Below are positions 3,047 to 59,561 of a DNA stretch of 64,000 nt, piece after piece. Source of the DNA: a virus. The stretch spans positions 3,377-67,376 of IMG/VR virus record IMGVR_UViG_3300021083_000196; one strand, 5' to 3'. The notes under the pieces are model-generated. The model saw nothing but the letters and a program-made list of their open reading frames with translations, did not search any database and was not told where the DNA came from. Made by a program: the position numbers and the translations under genes. Numbering within the stretch: the first letter of the stretch is position 1; each line of letters opens with the position of its first letter.

Positions 3047-3292
3047 TTATTCCTTTATATGAAAGTTTCCGTGTTTCAGTGCCATTCTCTTTGCTGCTGC
3101 ACCGTCAAGCAGGCTGATTTCAAGTCCAGAAGAACTCTCATGAGCGACAACCGCGCCGTTAATTTCTGCAATCTTCTGAATGTCATCTGCCGTGATAATA
3201 ACTTTTTCAATGCCGTGTTTTTTCATGATGATGGCAACAACCTTGTGCCATTGGTCATCCATCATTCCTACAACTTGTTTTCCTGTGATCAT
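3047..3292 (-). CDS. hypothetical phage protein
   Basis: 81-aa ORF with GGAGG SD. Confidence 0.6.
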   Translation of the reverse strand: MITGKQVVGMMDDQWHKVVAIIMKKHGIEKVIITADDIQKIAEINGAVVAHESSSGLEISLLDGAAAKRMALKHGNFHIKE

Positions 3293-3475
3293 CTCATTTT
3301 CCTCCGTGATTGGGTTGGTTTATGGTTTTTTCAAGTAAATTAACAGCCTGACAACCAAGACATGGGATATCCTCCTTGCCGCATTCGCACAATGCGCCCA
3401 TACCATGTTGGCGAATAAACTTTATTGCCCATTTTGAGTCTTTCATTTCAATACTTTCTTTTTTCTCATCGTCGG

Positions 3476-3979
3476 TCATGTTTTCACCCGCTTCGGAAGC
3501 GGATAATATTCGTCCCTGATGTCGCCGATCTTCTTGAACATCTGGTCCGAACATTCGATTTCAAGGCCGATGAGTTCGAGGCAGGCATCAGTGGTCAGTG
3601 GGCAGCATCCTTTCTCACCGGCCATGATGTACTCCATCGGGTTATCGAATACGCGCAGCGGTTTGCGGAACGTCCGCGCCTCATAAACGTTCGTCATCCC
3701 CAGTATCGAATCATCACAGACCCGCAGATACCATTTCTTAGGCTTCTGGGGTTCCCATGCTACGACATTGAAGACTTCACCATTGTATGTCACCGGATAG
3801 AGCATGACATCGAAGTTCCCATCTTCTGGAGTGAAGACTCCGCAGCCATTGAAGCCCCCGACGAGGGACACACTGGCAGCCGCTGCCTTGTGGATCACAC
3901 TCGCCGGTGCGTTTTTCTTCTCAAGATACGCCTTGGCGCGATCCTTGGGATATAGAAGATACTCATCGCTGAGGTGCAT
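3476..3979 (-). CDS. hypothetical phage protein
   Basis: Likely start MHLSDEY after GAGGAG SD. Confidence 0.6.
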   Translation of the reverse strand: MHLSDEYLLYPKDRAKAYLEKKNAPASVIHKAAAASVSLVGGFNGCGVFTPEDGNFDVMLYPVTYNGEVFNVVAWEPQKPKKWYLRVCDDSILGMTNVYEARTFRKPLRVFDNPMEYIMAGEKGCCPLTTDACLELIGLEIECSDQMFKKIGDIRDEYYPLPKRVKT

Positions 3980-4251
3980 CAGGTCAAGCTCCTCATATGG
4001 CGGAGTGTGACCTCGGTGAGCAGCTTGCCATCCCTGAATACGGGTTTCAAATCGCTCTCCACATCGATATGGCATTGCTGATCCATTAGTTTACCCTCAC
4101 GGACACAGAGCAGGCCCTTGGCCGACTTCTTGGTTCCGCTATCTGTCAGCGGATCCTTGCAGATTCCTCGCCTACGCACCTCTCCATCGCGGCTTCTGAA
4201 TGTGGCGAAAGAATGATAAGGACCATGTTTTTTGCATTTTGAACAGCGCAT
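3979..4251 (-). pseudogene. chimeric remnant: Zn-finger N-terminus fused to a NAMPT-like C-terminal fragment
   Basis: CSKC...GICK joined to KDPLTDSGTKKSAKGLL...DQQ...VFRDGKL, which resembles the NAMPT C-terminus. Confidence 0.55.
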
Positions 4252-5387
4252 TAGGCAGGCTCCACCATTATCACTTGTTTTTTCCCGCGAGTTAATGCGG
4301 TATACACCCATCTCCTACGCTCGGTCATATCACCACCTATGGGCTGATGATACACCAGAACATTATTGAACTCTGACCCCTGAGATTTGTGACAGGTGAT
4401 CGCATAGGCGTAATCAAAACGCTCAAGCTCTCTTATCGCTTTATTATATCCATCATAGTTTGATGATTCACCGCAGACATCTCCACGCCACACCGAAAGG
4501 TCGGTATAATCATCAAAATCAAGTTTGTAGAGAAGGCCGTTTTCTTCGCACATATTCTTGGCATATCCGATCATGCCATTGAATAGACCGGCCTCGTGAT
4601 TGTTTTTGAGACATATCATCTTGTCGCCCGTGACTGGGAACTTGGAAATAAACTGGTTAATCTTCCTGAATTTCGCGTTCCATGCCTGTCTGGTATTATT
4701 GCGTCCGACGATAATCTGGTCGGCAGCCGTATAAAGATCGGGTGCCGTCTGTCTCTGGCGCATGTATTTGAGATCGCCATGATCGCCGAAGGTAATACTG
4801 CCACCCTCGCGAACGATCTTGGAAAATCTGATGATCGAGCTTTCAAGAGCTTGACGGTGGATTTCCTCGATAAAGAAATCAGGTTTCAGGGTACATTCCC
4901 CACTGACTGGTGGGAGTTGGAACGGATCGCCGAGATATAAAATCTTTTTGCCATCGCGCTCGATATCTTCGATCAGCTTTTCACCAAGCATAGAATATTC
5001 ATCAACGATGATGAGGTCAGCCTCAAGCCACTCAAGTTTAGGTGAATATCCAAATCTCAAGGCTTTGGGGTCAGTATCTTCTTCCGGTTCTTCCTCATCG
5101 TCAAACGGACCCCAGCCATCCTCCTTTATTTTTTTATTGCGTTTCTTCAGCACGTACAAAAACCCGTGAATAGTGCCCGTGCCTTCGCATCCTTTTTCAC
5201 GCAGCACGTTCGCCGCCTTTCCGGTATAGGCGCAGAAAACAGTATTGCCGATGGCTTTGGCGATAACCTGCGCCAATGTCGTCTTACCGGAACCCGCATA
5301 TCCGGCGAGCACGAACCGCTTCTGGCCCGTCTTGTGCCAAGCCATAATTTTATCAAAGGCTTGCTGCTGTTGAGGGCTTAAATTCAT
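4251..5387 (-). CDS. Dda/RecD2-like SF1B helicase
   Basis: GYAGSGKT, AYTGKAA, IIVDEYSM, GDPFQLPPV, YAITCHKSQGSEF, YTALTR motifs. Confidence 0.92.
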   Translation of the reverse strand: MNLSPQQQQAFDKIMAWHKTGQKRFVLAGYAGSGKTTLAQVIAKAIGNTVFCAYTGKAANVLREKGCEGTGTIHGFLYVLKKRNKKIKEDGWGPFDDEEEPEEDTDPKALRFGYSPKLEWLEADLIIVDEYSMLGEKLIEDIERDGKKILYLGDPFQLPPVSGECTLKPDFFIEEIHRQALESSIIRFSKIVREGGSITFGDHGDLKYMRQRQTAPDLYTAADQIIVGRNNTRQAWNAKFRKINQFISKFPVTGDKMICLKNNHEAGLFNGMIGYAKNMCEENGLLYKLDFDDYTDLSVWRGDVCGESSNYDGYNKAIRELERFDYAYAITCHKSQGSEFNNVLVYHQPIGGDMTERRRWVYTALTRGKKQVIMVEPA

Positions 5388-40627: not shown

Positions 40628-41052
40628 TGCCTCGTGGAATTAATCTGAACAACCCGATGAATCTGGAACGTAATTCGATCTCATGGCAGGGCGCATCGAC
40701 GCTACAAGATGATCCGCGATTTGTGAGATTCGAAACACCAGAAATGGGTGTTCGCGCGGGTATGAAAGTCCTCTTGACCTATCAGAACAAAGACGATCTC
40801 CAGAACATCTCGGCGATCATCACTAAATATGCACCACCCGCTGAAAACGATACTGCCGCATATATCAGCGATGTTAGCGCCCATTGCGGTGTCTCCCCCA
40901 CGGACTTCTTTGATGTCGAGGTGCCCGATAACATGATTCGTTTGGCGCAGGCGATCATAATTCATGAGCAAGGGCATTGCCCAGACGACAGCACTCCATT
41001 TTGGTATGAAAATGATGTATATGAATCTGCGGCCAAAGATGCATTAGGATAA
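40627..41052 (+). CDS. putative endolysin/lysozyme-like protein
   Basis: RG...NNP.N, F.TPE.G.RA, I..YAPP.ENDT.AY, I..HE.G. Confidence 0.7.
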   Translation: MPRGINLNNPMNLERNSISWQGASTLQDDPRFVRFETPEMGVRAGMKVLLTYQNKDDLQNISAIITKYAPPAENDTAAYISDVSAHCGVSPTDFFDVEVPDNMIRLAQAIIIHEQGHCPDDSTPFWYENDVYESAAKDALG

Positions 41053-41514
41053 GATATTGAGCTTGGAGAAATCTCCAAAATATTTTACAGCGGCTTTATT
41101 ATATGCGATAGCAGCTTCGACTTCAGAATCAAAATATCCAAGATGATTTTGTTTGATTCGTGCGTGCCACTTATTCCCTCTTTTACAAACCCCTTTATAC
41201 CTACTTGATGGATTTATTAATGTGGGCTTATTTTTATTCATCATGTTTTGCGATTTAGTAGCAAGTCGAAGATTGTACTTCTGATTATTAAGGCGATTTC
41301 CATCCTTGTGGTCGACTGACTTTCTTTTCATTATTTCGCAATGCATGAAAATGGTTTTTTTCTTATAAGATTTTTTAGTAGCGGTTTTTATAGGTAAGGT
41401 TTCACTTCGGATGGCATATCCATGAGAAATTTGCCATTTCCATTGCATAAGGAATTTGTAATCATCCTCATCAACCTGAACAAATTTTCCACCGGTTATT
41501 GTGATTATCTTCAT
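41044..41514 (-). CDS. HNH-AP2 homing endonuclease
   Basis: VDH.DGN.LNN...NLR; S.YKGV...W.A.I...LG.F..E.EAA.AYN. Confidence 0.9.
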   Translation of the reverse strand: MKIITITGGKFVQVDEDDYKFLMQWKWQISHGYAIRSETLPIKTATKKSYKKKTIFMHCEIMKRKSVDHKDGNRLNNQKYNLRLATKSQNMMNKNKPTLINPSSRYKGVCKRGNKWHARIKQNHLGYFDSEVEAAIAYNKAAVKYFGDFSKLNILS

Positions 41515-41564
41515 TTTTTTAACCTATAATTAACGTAAATAAATATTACCCGACAAAGCAATCC

Positions 41565-41593
41565 TTGAAAACATCTAAAATATAATATATGGT
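41565..41593 (+). promoter_or_regulatory. sigma70-like promoter for the tRNA locus
   Basis: TTGAAA-17nt-TATGGT; predicted +1 near 41600, the first tRNA base. Confidence 0.5.
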
Positions 41594-41599
41594 GATTCT

Positions 41600-41676
41600 A
41601 GCAGGATAGAGGAGCGTTCGTCCTCATCGGCCTCATAAGTCGAAGATCGGTGGTTAGAATCCATCTCCTGCAACCA
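41600..41676 (+). tRNA. tRNA-Met(CAT), initiator-like
   Basis: Cloverleaf TCGGC-CT CAT AA-GTCGA; unpaired 1:72; CCA; T-loop TTAGAAT. Confidence 0.85.
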
Positions 41677-41701
41677 AATTCTAAGATGGCCAACTCAGTA
41701 T

Positions 41702-41777
41702 GAGGCTGTCGACAAGAGGTAAAGTCAGCAGATTTTCATTCTGCGATTCGTGGGTTCAAATCCCATCAGCCTCACCA
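41702..41777 (+). tRNA. tRNA-Glu(TTC)
   Basis: GAGGCTG/CAGCCTC, GCAGA-TT TTC AT-TCTGC, CCA. Confidence 0.92.
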
Positions 41778-41793
41778 CTGGAGAAAGAACGAG

Positions 41794-41847
41794 ATGTTAC
41801 GAGAGACAAACAAGATTGTGGCGAAAGCGATTAAACCCATCAAATAG
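41794..41847 (+). CDS. attenuator leader peptide 1 (MLRETNKIVAKAIKPIK)
   Basis: GGAG SD at 41780; 10 of the last 11 codons are K/I/V/A, matching the next four tRNAs. Confidence 0.75.
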   Translation: MLRETNKIVAKAIKPIK

Positions 41848-41900
41848 GGCTGGTCAAATTCGTCTTGAATTATAACCCGCCCTCAACAGGCGGGTTTTTT
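41846..41900 (+). terminator. antiterminator/intrinsic terminator 1
   Basis: AACCCGCC-ctcaaca-GGCGGGTT plus T-run; upstream AGGGCtGGT can pair with ACCcGCCCT. Confidence 0.85.
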
Positions 41901-41923
41901 ATTACGTGGAGGAAACAGATTAT

Positions 41924-41997
41924 TGACGATTGGCCGAGGGGTTAGGCATACGCTTGATAAGCGTACTACAGTGGTTCAAGTCCACTATCGTCAACCA
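41924..41997 (+). tRNA. tRNA-Ile(GAT)
   Basis: TACGC-TT GAT AA-GCGTA; CCA. Confidence 0.92.
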
Positions 41998-42003
41998 AAA
42001 TAA

Positions 42004-42076
42004 TGGTGCGGAGTCGGATGGTTAGACAGCAGATTTTTAATCTGTACCAAAGTGGGTTCAATTCCCACCGCACCAA
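42004..42076 (+). tRNA. tRNA-Lys(TTT)
   Basis: TGGTGCG/CGCACCA, GCAGA-TT TTT AA-TCTGT; no encoded CCA. Confidence 0.88.
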
Positions 42077-42077
42077 C

Positions 42078-42156
42078 GGGGAATGGGACTGCTTAGGGTG
42101 GTCGCCTCACTTGCAATGAGGATCGCAGATCGGGGCAGAACCGATATTCTCCACCA
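42078..42156 (+). tRNA. tRNA-Ala(TGC)
   Basis: G3:U70 pair; CCTCA-CT TGC AA-TGAGG; T-loop GGCAGAA; CCA. Confidence 0.9.
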
Positions 42157-42162
42157 AATTAT

Positions 42163-42237
42163 AGGGGGTTAGCTCAGAGGCAGAGCGTCCGGCTTACATC
42201 CGGAAGGACGAGATTTCGAAATTCTCACTCTCTACCA
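42163..42237 (+). tRNA. tRNA-Val(TAC)
   Basis: TCCGG-CT TAC AT-CCGGA; CCA. Confidence 0.92.
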
Positions 42238-42238
42238 T

Positions 42239-42268
42239 TTGACATCAGGACCCGAATCGTGTCATCGT
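42239..42268 (+). promoter_or_regulatory. promoter for leader 2 (predicted leaderless mRNA)
   Basis: TTGACA-18nt-(TGn)CATCGT-6nt-ATG; no SD. Confidence 0.5.
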
Positions 42269-42274
42269 TATAAG

Positions 42275-42352
42275 ATGAAAACGATATCAACATCGATGTA
42301 TTCCAGTGATCGCACCTTCAATAGAGGTTGCGGCGCGGGGCATTTGGTGTAA
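42275..42352 (+). CDS. attenuator leader peptide 2 (MKTISTSMYSSDRTFNRGCGAGHLV)
   Basis: Codons 3-20 correspond to the downstream 12-tRNA array. Confidence 0.8.
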   Translation: MKTISTSMYSSDRTFNRGCGAGHLV

Positions 42353-42414
42353 GTTTTCTTAGATTTTTATACATCAAAACCCCACCCAAAGTGATTTAGG
42401 TGGGGTTTTTGTTT
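42337..42414 (+). terminator. antiterminator/intrinsic terminator 2
   Basis: AAAACCCCACC...GGTGGGGTTTTT; leader end GGGGcaTTTGGTGTA pairs with TACATCAAAaCCCC. Confidence 0.85.
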
Positions 42415-42451
42415 ATACGGTTATTGAACATTGTTGAGATATGATGATTTT

Positions 42452-42528
42452 TTCCGAGTAGCACAGACGGTAGTTGCGCCTGACTGTTAATCAGGATGTC
42501 CGTGGTTCGATTCCACGCTCGGGAACCA
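42452..42528 (+). tRNA. tRNA-Asn(GTT)
   Basis: CCTGA-CT GTT AA-TCAGG; CCA. Confidence 0.92.
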
Positions 42529-42532
42529 ATTC

Positions 42533-42608
42533 GTCTCTCTGGCGTAGCTGGTGCGCGCGTCTGTCTGAAGAACAGAAGGATGCCGTTCGATTCGGCGGGG
42601 AGACACCA
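42533..42608 (+). tRNA. tRNA-Phe(GAA)
   Basis: TCTGT-CT GAA GA-ACAGA; CCA. Confidence 0.9.
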
Positions 42609-42613
42609 AATAC

Positions 42614-42688
42614 GCGCTGGAGATGTTGGCGGGTGCATGCGAGTCTTCCAAACTTGATGATGGGGTTCGACTCCCCACCGGCGCACCA
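42614..42688 (+). tRNA. tRNA-Gly(TCC)
   Basis: CGAGT-CT TCC AA-ACTTG; CCA. Confidence 0.9.
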
Positions 42689-42694
42689 AATTGA

Positions 42695-42770
42695 CGCAGC
42701 ATAGCTTAGTGGCTAAAGCTCGTTCCTCATAAGAACGCTATCATGGGTTCGAGTCCCATTGCTGCTACCA
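42695..42770 (+). tRNA. tRNA(CAT): Ile2 or Met
   Basis: CGTTC-CT CAT AA-GAACG; C1/U72 mismatch; identity not resolvable by eye. Confidence 0.85.
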
Positions 42771-42774
42771 CTTC

Positions 42775-42849
42775 GCCTCTAAAGCATTGTTAGTGATGCA
42801 GTTGCCTTGTAAGCATCAGAAGTCGGCGCAACTCCGGCATGAGGCACCA
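42775..42849 (+). tRNA. tRNA-Thr(TGT)
   Basis: CT TGT AA loop; T-loop CGCAACT; CCA. Confidence 0.85.
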
Positions 42850-42855
42850 ATTCAT

Positions 42856-42930
42856 GGACACATAGCTCAACGGTAGAGCACCGCACTGTCACTGCGGAGG
42901 TCGTGGGGTCAGCACCCATTGTGTTCGCCA
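42856..42930 (+). tRNA. tRNA-Asp(GTC)
   Basis: CCGCA-CT GTC AC-TGCGG; G73; CCA. Confidence 0.9.
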
Positions 42931-42994
42931 ATTATGTGTGGATATGAACATTTTTTATTAGGTTCATATCCACATTTGTGTTACTTTCTTTTCT

Positions 42995-43429
42995 ATGAAA
43001 AAATGCATTAAATGTGAAAAAATAAAACAGTTAGATTCCTTTTATAAAAGAAATGACAGAAAAGATCGTTATTCTTCGTCATGTATTGAGTGCCAAAGAA
43101 AATATCTAAAAGAGCACTATCACAAAAATATCAAATATTATAAGGCGAAAGCCAGAAAAAATGATATTAACGCAATAGAACAAAGATTCCATTTTTTAGT
43201 GGATTATTTAAAAAATAACCCATGTGTTGACTGTGGAGAAGGCGACATTGTAGTCCTTCAGTTTGATCACGTTCGAGGAAAGAAATTTCGCAACATTTCT
43301 ATGATGCTACACAGAAAAATGTCATGGGAAAAAATACTTTTAGAAATAAAAAAGTGTGAGGTTAGGTGTTCAAATTGCCATGTTAGAAAAACGGCAAGGC
43401 AATTTAATTGGAAAAAATTGCATGTATAG
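42995..43429 (+). CDS. HNH endonuclease inserted in tRNA array 2
   Basis: CIKC...PCVDCGE.D...LQFDHVRG...KCEVRCSNCH. Confidence 0.88.
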   Translation: MKKCIKCEKIKQLDSFYKRNDRKDRYSSSCIECQRKYLKEHYHKNIKYYKAKARKNDINAIEQRFHFLVDYLKNNPCVDCGEGDIVVLQFDHVRGKKFRNISMMLHRKMSWEKILLEIKKCEVRCSNCHVRKTARQFNWKKLHV

Positions 43430-43496
43430 CTCAATGGAGTAGAGCACCAAGCTACGAACTTGGGGGTTAAGGGTTCGAGTCCTTTTACATGCGCCA
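43420..43496 (+). tRNA. tRNA-Arg(ACG)
   Basis: CCAAG-CT ACG AA-CTTGG; CCA. Confidence 0.92.
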
Positions 43497-43501
43497 ATTT
43501 T

Positions 43502-43575
43502 CTCGTAGTGACGGAATGGTTACGTGACGGTCTGCAAAACCGTTTATGGCAGTTCGATTCTGCCCTATGAGTCCA
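43502..43575 (+). tRNA. tRNA-Cys(GCA)
   Basis: ACGGT-CT GCA AA-ACCGT; U73; CCA. Confidence 0.92.
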
Positions 43576-43576
43576 C

Positions 43577-43668
43577 GGAAAGTTTAGTGCAGCGGCCTGC
43601 ACCCCGATCTTGAAAATCGGTGATAGTCAGCGATGGCTATGGGGATCGACACCACCAGCTTTCCTCCA
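43577..43668 (+). tRNA. tRNA-Ser(TGA)
   Basis: CCGAT-CT TGA AA-ATCGG; long variable arm; CCA. Confidence 0.85.
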
Positions 43669-43675
43669 ATTCTTC

Positions 43676-43764
43676 GGTGAGTTAACTTGGCAAGTGCCAA
43701 GCACGGTTTGCTAAACCGTTGGTGCCTTTACCGGCATGTGGATCAGGACCACATCTCTCCGCCA
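43676..43764 (+). tRNA. tRNA-Ser(GCT)
   Basis: ACGGT-TT GCT AA-ACCGT; long variable arm; G73; CCA. Confidence 0.85.
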
Positions 43765-43765
43765 T

Positions 43766-43842
43766 CGGTGTCGGCACAGGTTGGATTCTGGTCTCGACTG
43801 TAAATCGACGTAAATGTGGTTCGACTCCACAGGCACCGACCA
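43766..43842 (+). tRNA. tRNA-Tyr(GTA)
   Basis: TCGA-CT GTA AA-TCGA; C1:G72; short variable loop; CCA. Confidence 0.85.
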
Positions 43843-43849
43843 ATTTTAT

Positions 43850-43929
43850 AGGCATGTATCTCCTTTGTCTTCTAAACAAGTGAAAGAGTAATTGGACTCA
43901 TGTAGGTTCGAATCCTATCATGCCTGCCA
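43850..43929 (+). tRNA. atypical tRNA-Arg(TCT) lacking a canonical D-arm
   Basis: AGGCATG/CATGCCT-G-CCA, TTTGT-CT TCT AA-ACAAG, GTAGG-TTCGAAT-CCTAT; only 7 nt between acceptor and anticodon stems. Confidence 0.75.
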
Positions 43930-44037
43930 AAATATCCATTGCATTCTCTGGAGAACATCCGTTAGAGTCTTTTCTTGGGCATGTGCTCATGAGGAAACAA
44001 AATGTCAATCAGAAAAATCATAAGAGGAATCATCATA

Positions 44038-44253
44038 ATGTCAGATATCGCAGACAATGTTATCGCACTCCAAGGCGCAGTAAACTCGCTTACAACAGAA
44101 ATCGCTTCACTCACGGCAGCCGTTGGTGCTCTCCAAGCTCCTGCAGCTCCTACCGTAGACCTTTCTCCCGTGCTTGCGGCTATTGCTGACATCAAGGCTC
44201 AACTCGTTCCGACACCTGCTCCGGCAGCACCGGCGACGACTACAGGCTCATAA
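44038..44253 (+). CDS. small Ala-rich coiled-coil protein
   Basis: MSDIADNV after GAGGA; followed by a terminator. Confidence 0.7.
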   Translation: MSDIADNVIALQGAVNSLTTEIASLTAAVGALQAPAAPTVDLSPVLAAIADIKAQLVPTPAPAAPATTTGS

Positions 44254-44280
44254 CTTTATAAAAGCTATGATATATTAAAA

Positions 44281-44312
44281 AAAGCTGGGGGATAACACCC
44301 TCAGCTTTTTTT
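44281..44312 (+). terminator. intrinsic terminator
   Basis: AAAGCTGGGGG-ataacac-CCTCAGCTTT plus T-run. Confidence 0.8.
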
Positions 44313-44313
44313 G

Positions 44314-44342
44314 TTGCTTTAAAAACAGAATCATCATATCGT
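44314..44342 (+). promoter_or_regulatory. promoter for leader 3 (predicted leaderless mRNA)
   Basis: TTGCTT-17nt-TATCGT-6nt-ATG; no SD. Confidence 0.55.
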
Positions 44343-44348
44343 AGAACA

Positions 44349-44423
44349 ATGAAAACGAATTTGTTACAGCTCTGGCATCAACCGCTCCCACAACTGGGAG
44401 TTTTTGTGCTTGGGCGAATGTAG
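44349..44423 (+). CDS. attenuator leader peptide 3 (MKTNLLQLWHQPLPQLGVFVLGRM)
   Basis: Codons 5-16 are exclusively L/Q/W/H/P, matching the next six tRNAs. Confidence 0.8.
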   Translation: MKTNLLQLWHQPLPQLGVFVLGRM

Positions 44424-44475
44424 GCAATAACTCATAAAGTTATTAACCAACCCGCCCTAACAAGGCGGGTTTTTT
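44412..44475 (+). terminator. antiterminator/intrinsic terminator 3
   Basis: AACCCGCC-ctaacaa-GGCGGGTT plus T-run; GGGCG in the leader pairs with CGCCC around the AATAACT/AGTTATT stem. Confidence 0.85.
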
Positions 44476-44496
44476 GTTATTGAAGGAGAAATTAAA

Positions 44497-44579
44497 GGGG
44501 ATGTGATGAAATTGGTAGACTTCCCTGACTTAAAATCAGGGGCTTCGGCGTGTGAGTTCAAGTCTCACCATCCCCACCA
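44497..44579 (+). tRNA. tRNA-Leu(TAA)
   Basis: CCTGA-CT TAA AA-TCAGG; CCA. Confidence 0.92.
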
Positions 44580-44581
44580 AT

Positions 44582-44659
44582 GCCGGTGTAGCAGAATGGC
44601 AAATGCGGCGGTCTTAGGAACCGCGTCATCTGGAGGTTCGAGTCCTCTCACCGGCACCA
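44582..44659 (+). tRNA. tRNA-Leu(TAG)
   Basis: GCGGT-CT TAG GA-ACCGC; short variable region; CCA. Confidence 0.9.
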
Positions 44660-44665
44660 AATTAA

Positions 44666-44742
44666 CGGCATGTAGCGAAGTCTGGTATCGCGCTCCCCTT
44701 GGGAGGGAGAGATCGAAGGTTCAAATCCTTCTATGCCGACCA
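44666..44742 (+). tRNA. tRNA-Pro(TGG)
   Basis: CTCCC-CT TGG GA-GGGAG; C1:G72; CCA. Confidence 0.92.
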
Positions 44743-44746
44743 TTTT

Positions 44747-44820
44747 ACAGGGATCGTCTAGTGGCAAGACAAGGGCCTCCAAAACCTTTGACCGGTGTTC
44801 GATTCATCGTCCCTGTGCCA
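44747..44820 (+). tRNA. tRNA-Trp(CCA)
   Basis: CT CCA AA loop; G73; CCA. Confidence 0.88.
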
Positions 44821-44826
44821 GTCTGT

Positions 44827-44901
44827 GGTGTGTATAGCTCAAGGGTCGAGCGCGGGATTGTGGCTCCTGATATACGGGTTCGAGTCCCGTTACGCACCCC
44901 A
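44827..44901 (+). tRNA. tRNA-His(GTG)
   Basis: CGGGA-TT GTG GC-TCCTG; encoded G-1 and C73. Confidence 0.92.
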
Positions 44902-44904
44902 TAT

Positions 44905-44980
44905 TCCGAGGTCGTCTAAATGGCAAGGACATGTGATTTTGGCTCATATAATGTTGGTTCGAACCCAGCCCTCGGAACCA
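44905..44980 (+). tRNA. tRNA-Gln(TTG)
   Basis: TGTGA-TT TTG GC-TCATA; U1:A72; CCA. Confidence 0.9.
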
Positions 44981-45057
44981 CCCTTTACTTTGATAGAAAA
45001 ATGCTGTTAGATTTCTGAGCCGCAATGTCGCGGCTTCTCTGAAAGGAAATCTAAAAT

Positions 45058-45471
45058 ATGTCTAACCAACTTTTCGAAAAAGCTTCACCACTCTTTGCTG
45101 CTCCGGTTCCTGCGCTGCCGACCCTGATGCAAGCGCAAGTCGATATGCTCACCAATCTCGTTGCAAAGTTCTCTGGCCTTGACCTGACCAAAGCGACCAC
45201 CACCGCGCTGGCTATCATCATCGGCGGCCAACAACCGAACACCGCGATTGCTGCAGCATCTGTTCTCGTCAAAGCACAGGCTAAAGAACAGGGCGTAGAG
45301 ATCGAAGATCAAGATGCTAACGTCATTGCTCAGGCGGTGACCAACGGCGTTCTGGCATCGATCCAGCTCTCGATTACGGCACAGGTGGCAGCCAGTCCAG
45401 CCGCTAATCAAGGAGGCGTTGAAGCAGGTGCGACAGCTCCCGCCGCATCAGCAGAAGCAGGCACTAACTAA
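45058..45471 (+). CDS. Ala-rich hypothetical protein
   Basis: 137 aa; GAAAGGA SD. Confidence 0.7.
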   Translation: MSNQLFEKASPLFAAPVPALPTLMQAQVDMLTNLVAKFSGLDLTKATTTALAIIIGGQQPNTAIAAASVLVKAQAKEQGVEIEDQDANVIAQAVTNGVLASIQLSITAQVAASPAANQGGVEAGATAPAASAEAGTN

Positions 45472-57402: not shown

Positions 57403-57861
57403 TTAATACACTTCTCCGCGTTGTATCCGAGATATAGTTGATTGAGAAACCCCATATTCTTCTGCTAAGTCGTACTGATTCTCATGCCTTGATCGTATTA
57501 TTTTTACTTCCTTGGCAGTAAATTTTGCCCTTGGATTGTTCACGCCATTCCGGTCATATCCCCTGCCTTTAGAGAACATATCCTTGTTATTATCAGCTTG
57601 AGTACCTAAGAAAAGATGGTTCGGATTCACACAGGGAGGATTGTCACATTTATGTAATACGTGCATATCTTTTGGAATTTCCCCCACATAAATTTCCCAA
57701 GAAATTCTATGTGCCTTTTTATGTTTTCCATCTATAGACATTTTGCCGTAGCTGTTTTTACCTTTAGCCCCTTTCCAGAGCCAACAGCTACTAGCTACGG
57801 CAAAAATTACCTTTTCTTCAAATCTTTTTTTAAAGATTTTCTTCAAGCTTTTCGACTTCAT
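57403..57861 (-). CDS. HNH endonuclease with C-terminal HTH
   Basis: CWLWKG...AHR.SW...VLHKCDNPPCVNPNHL.LGT..DN. Confidence 0.9.
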   Translation of the reverse strand: MKSKSLKKIFKKRFEEKVIFAVASSCWLWKGAKGKNSYGKMSIDGKHKKAHRISWEIYVGEIPKDMHVLHKCDNPPCVNPNHLFLGTQADNNKDMFSKGRGYDRNGVNNPRAKFTAKEVKIIRSRHENQYDLAEEYGVSQSTISRIQRGEVY

Positions 57862-59146
57862 AGATGAATCTTATTACGTTCTCGGAAAACCCATCAATAT
57901 GTTTCCATCGGCCATAGCCAACACCGTTCTTATTAGATGCCACATTAATCATGTAGGCATTCTTAAAATCAGGATCAGACACGCTGTCATGGCTCTGCTC
58001 ATCCGTGATGACGATGATACGATCAGCCTTGACGTTGGCGTTTAGCCATCTGAGAGCCTCTCCAAGATGAGTGCCGCCATGGGGTTGAGAGTTCTGGATG
58101 GCATCTACTCCAGCCATGCCCAAGCGCGGCGGGCATTCCTTGAGTGCCGTGGAGAAGCTGAACACGCGGCGGTCACCGTGAATGATAGAACCAAGTGCCG
58201 CAGCAGCATCAAGACGAGTCATGTCAGACTTCGCTGACAGCTTCGCGTCCATGCTTCCAGACACATCGACGAGCACAACAGTAGTCCCTGACAATTTCGG
58301 CAGCCCTTCGATGGACTTCAAAAGCATCTGGTCAAGCTCTGGTTCATATTTCTTGACGATTCGTGCGGCTGCCACATAACGGAACGGCAGAACTCTGTCG
58401 GCACCCTTACCGGCAAGAATAGCCTCGCGGATCAGAGAATCATCAACACCTGATTCGGACATGTTACGCAGGTTGCGAAGCAATGCCAGATATCCGAGGT
58501 TGCCTTCCTTCAGAAGACGGGTGAAGGTTTCCTTCTTATCCGCGCCTGCCGACAGGGCGACTTCCCAAGTATCAGGAACCTCTAGTTGCTTCGACACCAG
58601 CCGCTTCCACATATCGGATTGATCGGTATCCTTTGGCTTGCCGTGTGCTAAGAAAAGAACATCACGAAGCTTGATCGTGTTGTCTCGGTTATACTTAGCG
58701 ATCGAATACTCGTTGAACTTCGTGAATGCACGTGCAAGACCCTTTTTCAACTGAGCGGACAGCGGCTTCTTGCCATCTTTCCAGTAGATGGTCAGCAACT
58801 CGGCAAGCTCATCCGGACGCTGGATGACCTCGTAAATCGTATCCGACACGAGACGTGATCCGGAACCGGTCTTGCAAAGAACGGACAGAAGCAGCAGTGG
58901 GATATGGCGCAGCTTTCCAGCGGTGCGGACTTCTATAGCCAATGCGGCCAATCTTTGTGCGGAAACCTGCGTTGCCAATTCTTCTACGCGCTTGGCAATC
59001 TCTTGACCTTCTTCGTAGGCATCTTTTTCCCACAACATGCAGGACATCACCGAACGGCGCAGAGCCTGTTCAGGATTGATATGTTTTGCCGGTGCACCTT
59101 CGTGGGTGAACTCGGTCGTTTTAGTTCTGGTATTTAGTCTAGCCAT
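57830..59146 (-). CDS. rsr: Ro60/Rsr (TROVE plus vWA) RNA-binding protein
   Basis: THEGA, RPDEL, QLKKGLA.AF..F.EY..AKY, P.TWE..LS, ALLRNLRN, LPFR, DVSGSM, ITDEQ. Confidence 0.93.
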   Translation of the reverse strand: MARLNTRTKTTEFTHEGAPAKHINPEQALRRSVMSCMLWEKDAYEEGQEIAKRVEELATQVSAQRLAALAIEVRTAGKLRHIPLLLLSVLCKTGSGSRLVSDTIYEVIQRPDELAELLTIYWKDGKKPLSAQLKKGLARAFTKFNEYSIAKYNRDNTIKLRDVLFLAHGKPKDTDQSDMWKRLVSKQLEVPDTWEVALSAGADKKETFTRLLKEGNLGYLALLRNLRNMSESGVDDSLIREAILAGKGADRVLPFRYVAAARIVKKYEPELDQMLLKSIEGLPKLSGTTVVLVDVSGSMDAKLSAKSDMTRLDAAAALGSIIHGDRRVFSFSTALKECPPRLGMAGVDAIQNSQPHGGTHLGEALRWLNANVKADRIIVITDEQSHDSVSDPDFKNAYMINVASNKNGVGYGRWKHIDGFSENVIRFIYEVEKLEENL

Positions 59147-59164
59147 TTTAGTCTCCTTAAAAAA

Positions 59165-59264
59165 TAGAGGAACATGCGATAAAAGAAATGCCGATTTGAA
59201 CGGCTATGCAGCTTTTTTAAAGCTGTGTTCAACCAATGAAGTATCTCTTATCTATCGCCATCTA
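59165..59264 (-). ncRNA. Y RNA-like 4 (Ro-binding stem plus T-arm hairpin)
   Basis: TAGA-TGGCG...TACTTCA...GCATGTTCC-TCTA; internal GCCG-TTCAAAT-CGGC. Confidence 0.75.
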
Positions 59265-59274
59265 CAAAAGTACA

Positions 59275-59407
59275 GTGAGGGAACAAGCACCGAAAGTAAC
59301 GTATGCGCTCTACCACTAAGCTACAACAACCATAAATGGGTTGCTGACCGGATTCGAACCGATGCCTCATCCTCCAAATGGAAGTAACTCTCGATTACAC
59401 CACTCAC
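59275..59407 (-). ncRNA. yrlA: YrlA-type Y RNA 3
   Basis: GTGAG-TGGTG...TACTTC...GCTTGTTCC-CTCAC enclosing a permuted tRNA (T-arm, closed acceptor stem, D-arm). Confidence 0.85.
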
Positions 59408-59417
59408 CTTATCAAGC

Positions 59418-59550
59418 AACAGGGGAATAAGCGGAAAGACGTTTTTTACGTGCTCTACCAATTGAGCTACCCACCCCGAAGGGCAGGGATGGACTCGAAC
59501 CACCAACCCCGTCATTACAAATGAAGAACTTCTTTCCTACGCCACCTGTT
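59418..59550 (-). ncRNA. yrlA: YrlA-type Y RNA 2
   Basis: AACAGG-TGGCG...TTCTTCA...GCTTATTCC-CCTGTT; GGTTCGAGTCC then TAGCTCAATTGGTAGAGC. Confidence 0.85.
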
Positions 59551-59561
59551 TTATCTATACA

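Follow-up and report, generated by a model that had tools for sequence, protein, structure and literature searches.

A putative leader-peptide attenuator inside a phage tRNA operon

What phages gain from tRNA genes of their own, and by what means such genes are regulated, is a problem of long standing. It arises in a pointed form in the DNA analysed here, a stretch of 64,000 nucleotides (nt) of a virus (IMG/VR record IMGVR_UViG_3300021083_000196, positions 3,377 to 67,376; hereafter the window), in which two tRNA genes of a long array stand in front of every gate and the others stand behind short open reading frames (ORFs) that are each followed by a terminator. What would such an arrangement be for? 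The element at the centre of the question is the first of these ORFs, leader 1 (41794-41847), together with its terminator. Its sequence anatomy, the match of its codons to the tRNA genes behind it, its conservation in two relatives and the alternative folds predicted for its RNA led us to consider that leader 1 is probably a ribosome-mediated (trp-type) transcription attenuator, which lies inside a phage tRNA operon and would supply tRNAs on demand.

The window makes up most of a virus record of 67,376 bases that is rated 96% complete, and it carries a myovirus gene set (terminase, portal, sheath and baseplate). The PB1-like phages of Pseudomonas and Burkholderia are distant kin, with portal proteins at most 48% identical. 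The stretch is present in two DNA runs of one study, labelled peat metagenome, which may be where it came from; among the runs listed for it there is none of RNA. Positions given below are those of the window unless a relative is named, and the features of the tRNA array are all on the plus strand.

Two relatives were found, a 70-kb viral contig (L003) and a fragment (L004). L003 encodes a baseplate protein that is 82% identical to that of the window and a neighbouring protein of 137 amino acids that is 60% identical; its array has the same tRNA isotype order and all three leaders (MRRETVKIVAKAIKPDK, MKTICTSNMSYDRGFGRSGEGLFV and MKKNLLQPWHLQQLPLGAFMLGR). L004 has the promoter, a CAT tRNA-like gene, the tRNA-Glu gene, leader 1 (MRRETNKIVAKAIKPDR) and the same terminator.

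The leader 1 module and its tRNA block

A promoter scan gave a promoter-like site of the sigma-70 kind, P1 (TTGAAA-17 nt-TATGGT, 41565-41593), which ends 6 nt before the first tRNA gene. The two ungated genes follow, an initiator-like tRNA(CAT), referred to as CAT no. 1 (41600-41676; Rfam 47.4 bits), and a tRNA-Glu(TTC) (41702-41777; Rfam 60.5 bits), both of them called by ARAGORN as well. The Shine-Dalgarno-like GGAG of leader 1 (41780-41783) starts 2 nt past the CCA of tRNA-Glu, the place given to it in a preliminary description of this DNA that had been made from the letters alone. The distance from GGAG to the ATG at 41794 is 10 nt, which is rather long; in the relatives a GAGG stands at 9 and 8 nt. 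The leader 1 ORF, MLRETNKIVAKAIKPIK, consists of 17 codons followed by the stop codon TAG (41845-41847), and the ORF is kept in both L003 and L004.

Downstream of the ORF, a terminator scan gave intrinsic terminator 1 (41874-41903) with the stem AACCCGCC/GGCGGGTT, a 7-nt loop and a T tract. Its hairpin (41874-41896) has 8 pairs, 6 of which are G:C, with a stem energy of -13.3 to -13.8 kcal/mol, and TTTTTT comes directly after it. When the RNA was folded minus the 3' arm of the terminator, an antiterminator was predicted at 41846-41883, in which AGGGC.GGT (41846-41854) pairs with ACC.GCCCT (41875-41883) around an inner hairpin; the paired positions are 41846-41850 with 41879-41883 and 41852-41854 with 41875-41877. 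This structure shares bases with the stop codon and with the terminator 5' arm, and the folding agrees with the preliminary description, in which the TAG began the antiterminator.

The first gated tRNA gene is tRNA-Ile(GAT) (41924-41997), which is followed by tRNA-Lys(TTT) (42004-42076); tRNA-Val(TAC) (42163-42237) is the last of the block. All three were found by ARAGORN and Rfam. The CCA of the tRNA-Lys gene is not encoded, and its acceptor stem was read by hand. The 79 bases between Lys and Val are filled by an Ala-like tRNA gene (42078-42156) that was read from the sequence and has the pair G3:T70, the anticodon loop CTTGCAA, which reads TGC, and the T loop GGCAGAA. ARAGORN and Rfam gave no call at 42078-42156; at the same position of L003, ARAGORN called a tRNA-Ala(TGC). 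With this Ala-like gene, gated block 1 therefore consists of Ile, Lys, Ala and Val.

Codons 7-14 of leader 1 (KIVAKAIK) specify solely the amino acids of these four downstream tRNAs. For Ile, leader 1 uses ATT, ATT and ATC, which fit the downstream GAT tRNA; ATA is found in leader 2 alone, and leader 3 has no Ile codon. The distribution of Ile codons between leaders 1 and 2 had been described correctly before.

The leader 1 region is the best-conserved stretch of the array. The window and L003 share 83% identity over it, and blocks of 27 and 20 nt, the 27-nt one within the ORF, are identical in the window, L003 and L004. The identity of the tRNA genes between the window and L003 is 53-74% for those flanking leader 1 and 38-85% over the whole array (window 41600-44980, L003 2216-5918). 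The isotype order is kept, but the low identity of the tRNA genes suggests fast turnover or replacement of these genes. Leaders 2 and 3 of L003 have the same matched amino-acid sets as those of the window (the set of leader 2 comprises 11 amino acids) in a changed order, a pattern that agrees with selection for a certain composition and not for a particular peptide.

Further relatives were sought in several ways. Searches of the array and of leader 3 by megablast and blastn against cultured phages gave no relative, and none of 80 endolysin loci had three or more tRNA genes. Among 41 baseplate loci, the array was present in one, that of the L003 contig; the other 40 were without it, although a solitary CAT tRNA gene was present in two of these. 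Scanning metagenomes for the leader 1 pattern yielded 11 matches, none in a tRNA or leader context, and scans of viral contigs with the block behind terminator 2 and with the leader 3 pattern returned the L003 contig and 6 chance matches only.

Codon match, folding and rival explanations

Two further modules lie deeper in the array. Module 2 (42239-42412) comprises TTGACA (42239-42244), the leader 2 ORF MKTISTSMYSSDRTFNRGCGAGHLV (42275-42352) and a terminator (42378-42407) plus T tract. It precedes block 2, the order of which is Asn, Phe, Gly, a second CAT tRNA, Thr, Asp, an HNH gene, Arg, Cys, Ser, Ser-like, Tyr-like and Arg(TCT)-like. Module 3 (44314-44478) comprises a promoter-like site (TTGCTT-17-TATCGT, 44314-44342), the leader 3 ORF MKTNLLQLWHQPLPQLGVFVLGRM (44349-44423) and a terminator (44449-44471), and precedes block 3 (Leu, Leu, Pro, Trp, His, Gln). 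The leader modules are small, about 130-210 nt. Between them, the three gated blocks and the ungated pair provide tRNAs for all 20 amino acids.

The match of each leader to its own block was compared with random ORFs drawn from the codon usage of the 50 long ORFs of the phage. Leader 1 has a run of 8 block-1 codons (P=2e-4). The run of leader 2 is 18 codons if the CAT tRNA is taken to read both ATA and ATG (P=1e-5) and 12 codons if counted strictly (P=5e-4), and the run of 12 codons in leader 3 was seen in 0 of 1,000,000 simulations. Every decoding box of the own block is represented in each of the leaders (4/4, 12/12 and 6/6 for leaders 1, 2 and 3), both Arg, both Ser and both Leu boxes included; the corresponding chances of such coverage are 0.17, 2e-4 and 7e-3.

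We infer that leader 1 is translated and that readthrough past it is regulated, in the following way. Transcription from P1 would first yield the initiator-like tRNA and tRNA-Glu, unconditionally. A ribosome would load at the Shine-Dalgarno site right past the Glu CCA and translate the leader. With charged Lys, Ile, Val and Ala tRNAs in plenty it would reach the TAG and cover the antiterminator 5' arm, AGGGCTGGT, upon which the terminator would form and the Ile-Lys-Ala-Val block would stay untranscribed. The trigger would be a shortage of any of the four, be it that a host tRNA is cleaved or depleted or that the supply is poor for the codons of the phage. The ribosome would then stall on K-I-V-A, the stop-codon stretch would pair with the terminator 5' arm and RNA polymerase would enter the four tRNA genes, the products of which would relieve the stall, giving a negative feedback. 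Leaders 2 and 3 may act likewise on the other two blocks. We give an even chance to the wider idea that the array is a self-regulating decoding kit, in which three sub-operons are opened by block-specific stalls and the initiator is made unconditionally, and which would sense the loss of host tRNAs (e.g. to anticodon-nuclease defences) and supply the missing ones.

The proposed switch was examined by folding, with a ribosome footprint masked at each codon in turn and the probability of the terminator taken at equilibrium. As a kinetic proxy, the RNA was cut in the terminator loop and the upstream pairing of the terminator 5' arm was computed. The results showed that at equilibrium without a ribosome terminator 1 forms with a probability of 0.91-0.95. 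When I8 or V9 occupies the A site, the probability falls to 0.01-0.06, and with the ribosome anywhere from K11 to the stop codon it is at least 0.92, in all three phages. When the footprint edge was varied from +10 to +16, the zone of low terminator probability stayed within codons 8-11, which are the first K-I-V-A(-K) and amount to roughly one codon for each tRNA downstream. In RNA cut as described, the terminator 5' arm is paired upstream with a probability of 0.73-0.88 when the ribosome is on matched codons, and of 0.00-0.46 when it is at the last codons or the stop codon, in 6 of the 7 leaders; the exception is leader 2 of L003, where the pairing comes back up to 0.63-0.68 near the end of the leader. 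An antiterminator is predicted in all seven leaders by the folding of cut RNA, and for leader 1 at equilibrium too. Its 5' arm is encoded by the unmatched tail codons (PIK, AGHLV, GVFVLGRM), and stop codon and terminator are 26-30 nt apart in all six leaders of the window and L003.

Several observations weigh against an attenuator of this kind. Some concern the switch itself. In leaders 2 and 3 the equilibrium fold retains the terminator at every ribosome position, and it is therefore the kinetic proxy, and nothing else, from which a switch is predicted in these two. The observed antiterminator pairing was matched by 6, 1, 17, 28, 13, 33 and 12 of 200 shuffled spacers for the seven leaders, a modest excess. 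In cut RNA without a ribosome the antiterminator of leader 1 still forms (0.60-0.74), and by default the untranslated leader may therefore be either terminated or read through. The persistence of the terminators of leaders 2 and 3 and the modest excess over shuffles would also suit terminators that are fixed and partial and set the relative amounts of the blocks, with ORFs that are untranslated or encode peptides with functions of their own, and with no sensing. We consider this explanation very unlikely. The three matches of leaders to their own blocks have joint odds far below chance; a peptide with its own job would keep its order of amino acids, but here the sets are kept and the order is changed between phages; and the matched codons lie where a stalled ribosome frees the antiterminator, the unmatched ones where the antiterminator is covered.

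The same weakness of the equilibrium switch in leaders 2 and 3 leaves room for an output other than termination. The leaders could sense decoding and act on the access of Rho, on processing by RNase E or RNase P, or on the stability of the tRNA precursor, and leader 1 does sit within a tRNA precursor that needs RNase P and 3' processing cuts. This seems improbable to us, for all seven leaders are followed by a GC-rich hairpin with a T tract, and the end of the ORF is able to pair with the 5' arm of the hairpin. The ORF end, the spacing and the hairpin with its T tract give the geometry of attenuators that work by intrinsic terminators.

Other adverse points concern the make-up and history of the locus. 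Leader 1 also contains codons of other blocks, namely L, R, E, T, N and P. The related sequences number only three, and leader 1 is too similar among them for covariation. Between terminator 2 and the next tRNA gene lies a near-invariant block of about 30 nt, GGTTATTGAACATTGTTGA..TATGATGATTTT (window 42421-42451, L003 3146-3178), in surroundings that are 62% identical; its TATGAT stands 6 nt before the tRNA gene, as the TATGGT of P1 does, and the block may be a promoter below gate 2, or a processing signal. Several tRNA genes of the window look decayed, and block 2 is broken by the HNH gene, by a hairpin and by an additional ORF that brings a terminator of its own.

Such decay and disruption raise the further explanation that the gates are relics, an ancestral system having been uncoupled in this phage by insertions and decayed tRNAs, and leader 1 having been kept by linkage. 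It would account for the split of block 2 by the HNH gene and the extra ORF, for the Ala-, Ser(GCT)-, Tyr- and Arg(TCT)-like genes that escape or barely reach the tRNA models, and for the low identity of orthologous tRNA genes between the window and L003 noted above. On the other hand, leader 1 is better conserved than anything else in the array, with its blocks identical in three phages, block 1 is unbroken, and every module has an intact ORF, terminator and spacing; we therefore hold the relic explanation to be unlikely, and an attenuator at leader 1 to be the probable one.

Terminators 1 and 3 have AACCCGCCCT..GGCGGGTT in common, and the pattern CCCGCC-N(3-12)-GGCGGG matches at these two terminators alone in the 64-kb window (shuffle mean 0.03). 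The shared stem had been noticed before and taken to suggest duplication of the module. The stem stands, and an origin of modules 1 and 3 by duplication is plausible in view of its uniqueness, but their likeness is confined to the 31-nt terminator.

The ungated pair and the two CAT tRNAs

Why are two tRNA genes left outside the gates? No attenuator-like element lies upstream of tRNA(CAT) no. 1 and tRNA-Glu; the first plus-strand terminator-like site downstream of P1 is the hairpin at 41874-41896, and the position of both genes ahead of any attenuator was therefore described correctly at the outset. The same holds by position in all three phages, where this pair precedes every gate, with tRNA-Glu(TTC) at the same position in L003 and L004. 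In L003 a like promoter site (TTGAAA-17-TAAAGT) stands before the same tRNA gene, and in L004 TTGACT ... TATAAT, read by eye, stands before the CAT tRNA-like gene.

Bacterial initiator tRNAs have A11:U24 in the D stem and three consecutive G:C pairs, 29-31:39-41, in the anticodon stem. CAT no. 1 of the window has an unpaired A1xA72, A11:T24, G2:C71, C3:G70 and A73, and its L003 counterpart has C1xA72 and A11:T24. Its identity to metY of Escherichia coli (E. coli) is 70% (71% for the L003 gene), compared with 45-58% to metT and ileX (45% and 49%, respectively, for the window gene). The three G:C pairs are absent from the anticodon stem in the window (G29:C41, G30.T40, C31:G39) and in L003 (T29:A41, G30:C40, C31:G39), and 41600-41676 is therefore termed initiator-like and not a proven initiator. 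The initiator-like genes of the window and L003 are 57-62% identical to each other, i.e. each is nearer to metY of E. coli (70-71%) than to the other, which likewise suggests fast turnover or replacement.

The second CAT tRNA, CAT no. 2 (42695-42770; ARAGORN), has its L003 counterpart at 3581-3659. In both phages it has a C-T mismatch at 1:72 (C1xT72) and the elongator-type pair C11:G24. Unpaired 1:72 positions are found only in CAT tRNAs, namely in 2 of the 18 tRNAs parsed in the window (Lys by hand) and in 2 of the 21 parsed in L003. The unpaired 1:72 that the preliminary description had reported for CAT no. 1 is present, and CAT no. 2 is unpaired there as well. In blastn searches against phages, CAT no. 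2 had no match, and CAT no. 1 matched 5 records (4 annotated as plain tRNA-Met, 1 unannotated), which are uninformative as to isotype.

CAT no. 2 had been proposed as a tRNA-Ile2 on the ground that ATA occurs in the leader before it. The observation stands, since leader 2 has an ATA codon in the window and in L003 alike. An internal ATG is kept in both too, however, and a single CAT tRNA lies downstream. The identities of CAT no. 2 to E. coli genes are 66% and 63% for metT and 61% and 52% for ileX in the two phages, and we regard it as slightly nearer to the E. coli elongator tRNA-Met than to Ile2. The determinants of the lysidine synthetase TilS in E. coli are the acceptor pairs C4:G69 and C5:G68; CAT no. 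2 has A4:T69 and G5:C68, which are not of the Ile2 type. Both comparisons are weak as evidence, E. coli not being the host, and CAT no. 2 may carry either Met or Ile. Of the 928 Ile codons in the long ORFs of the phage, 187 are ATA, and an AUA-reading tRNA would be useful to it. A bolder side reading would have CAT no. 2 read both the ATA and the ATG of leader 2 through partial lysidine modification.

The preliminary description had explained the ungated initiator by its invisibility to elongation stalling. This logic holds, and the position in three of three phages and the initiator-like features agree with it; the missing G:C pairs do not. We would add a second reason. Without initiation no leader is translated, and an untranslated leader 1 terminates at equilibrium, by which gate 1 would be locked shut. 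It is likely that the initiator-like tRNA lies ahead of the gates because the sensors are unable to read it and yet need it to work. If so, the place of the initiator outside the gates would be a testable design rule. Neither reason accounts for the ungated place of tRNA-Glu; codon 4 of leader 1 is GAG in each of the three phages, but this codon may be structural.

Known attenuators and neighbouring features

Enterobacteria have multivalent leader attenuators in the ilvGMEDA (Ile, Leu and Val codons) and thr (Thr and Ile codons) operons, and further leaders of this type in trp, his, leu and pheA. Like leaders of the ilv and thr type, those of the phage combine a short ORF rich in regulatory codons with an intrinsic terminator, several amino acids would be sensed per leader, and a mutually exclusive antiterminator, predicted here from the sequence, would have its 5' arm covered by a ribosome at the stop codon. 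Unlike them, the phage modules would control tRNA genes and not biosynthetic enzymes, and the product, a tRNA, would therefore relieve the stall directly. The phage leaders use one or two of each regulatory codon instead of runs of a single kind, the three of them partition the tRNA set for all 20 amino acids, and leader 1 lies inside the operon behind two tRNA genes, whereas leaders 2 and 3 may be leaderless.

The pheST attenuator of E. coli, with its pheM leader, is a case of leader-peptide attenuation tuned to the supply of charged tRNA. It likewise adjusts the translation apparatus by charged tRNA, but it controls a synthetase gene, on a bacterial chromosome, and senses a single amino acid. 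T-box riboswitches also terminate transcription conditionally before translation-related genes according to the state of a tRNA; they differ in that they bind uncharged tRNA directly and need neither a ribosome nor an ORF. A T-box or other known RNA family can be rejected here, as there was no T-box match in 41400-45200 at E values up to 1. None of the Rfam leader families reached its threshold; Trp_leader, the only leader family with a match, scored 22.4 bits (gathering score 41) at 44367-44478, on leader 3, and nothing was found at leader 1. Phe-rich leaders of pheV and pheU in E. coli were also considered and rejected, because no such ORF lies upstream of either gene.

A full-text literature search, the scope of which left out older subscription papers such as those on the phage T5 tRNA region, gave no account of tRNA genes controlled by leader-peptide attenuation. 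Passages of PMC10264068 contain none of the words terminator, attenuat, leader and promoter, and in a passage of PMC3082878 the sole mention of a tRNA operon is unrelated. The working principle is that of multivalent leader-peptide attenuators, a textbook mechanism in amino-acid synthesis, and here it appears to be wired to tRNA genes, the product of which would cure the very stall that induced it. If the proposal is true, phage tRNA arrays would be demand-driven rather than constitutive, and the leaders would be natural reporters of the host tRNAs that fail during infection.

Leaders 2 and 3 have no Shine-Dalgarno site. In both phages, a -35-like hexamer, a 17-nt spacer and a -10-like hexamer, read by eye, precede these leaders, and the ATG follows 6-7 nt on, so that both mRNAs may be leaderless. 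The hexamer sites of modules 2 and 3 are missing from the sites given by the promoter scan, and module 2 of the window has a poor -10 (TCATCG).

ARAGORN called 19 tRNA genes on the plus strand at 41600-44980, and two more came from Rfam (42775-42846 and 43850-43926). Three further tRNA-like genes were read from the sequence and by comparison with L003, i.e. the Ala-like gene of block 1, a Ser(GCT)-like gene (43676-43764) and a Tyr(GTA)-like gene (43766-43842). Nonstandard T loops are found at 42078-42156, 42775-42849, 42856-42930, 43676-43764, 43766-43842 and 43850-43926, with GGCAGAA, CGCAACT, GTCAGCA or ATCAGGA instead of TTCGAAT; L004 has GGCAGTA. The Tyr-like gene lacks a long variable arm, and the Arg(TCT)-like gene has 4 nt only in the place of the D arm. 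Such departures from the usual tRNA fold may reflect decay or adaptation. L003 has two extra tRNA-like genes with odd anticodon loops, neither of which is in the window. The one at 3179-3264 has a two-base anticodon according to ARAGORN and an Rfam tRNA score of 58.4 bits, and the one at about 4273-4355 has a 9-nt loop, read by eye.

HNH endonuclease genes lie beside and inside the tRNA arrays, at 41044-41514 (minus strand) and 42995-43429 (plus strand) in the window and at about 3660-4023 and 5236-5690 in L003. Their positions differ between the two phages, which suggests independent insertions that split blocks still described by the leaders. Between block 2 and module 3 of the window (44002-44313) there is an Ala/Pro-rich ORF of 83 amino acids followed by a strong 16-pair terminator (44276-44313); this ORF had no family match and no counterpart at the L003 position. 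In L004, past a tRNA-Lys gene, positions 1-160 of the minus strand hold TTGACT and a longer ORF, MEYKSPKIHRTPLYRAKAAYSNMKRRCVGG..., which draws on a wide range of amino acids and is truncated by the end of the contig; this ORF may represent a broader leader 2 of that phage.

Away from the array, at 57830-59552 on the minus strand, the window encodes a Ro60-type protein with TROVE and vWA domains beside a match to YrlA-like Y RNA (59430-59537) that scored 39.6 bits, below the gathering score of 69, with an E value of 4.5e-7. Weak tRNA-like calls were made near this gene at 59181-59250 and 59478-59552. The Ro60-type gene and the YrlA-like match look like a phage-borne Ro/Y-RNA module.

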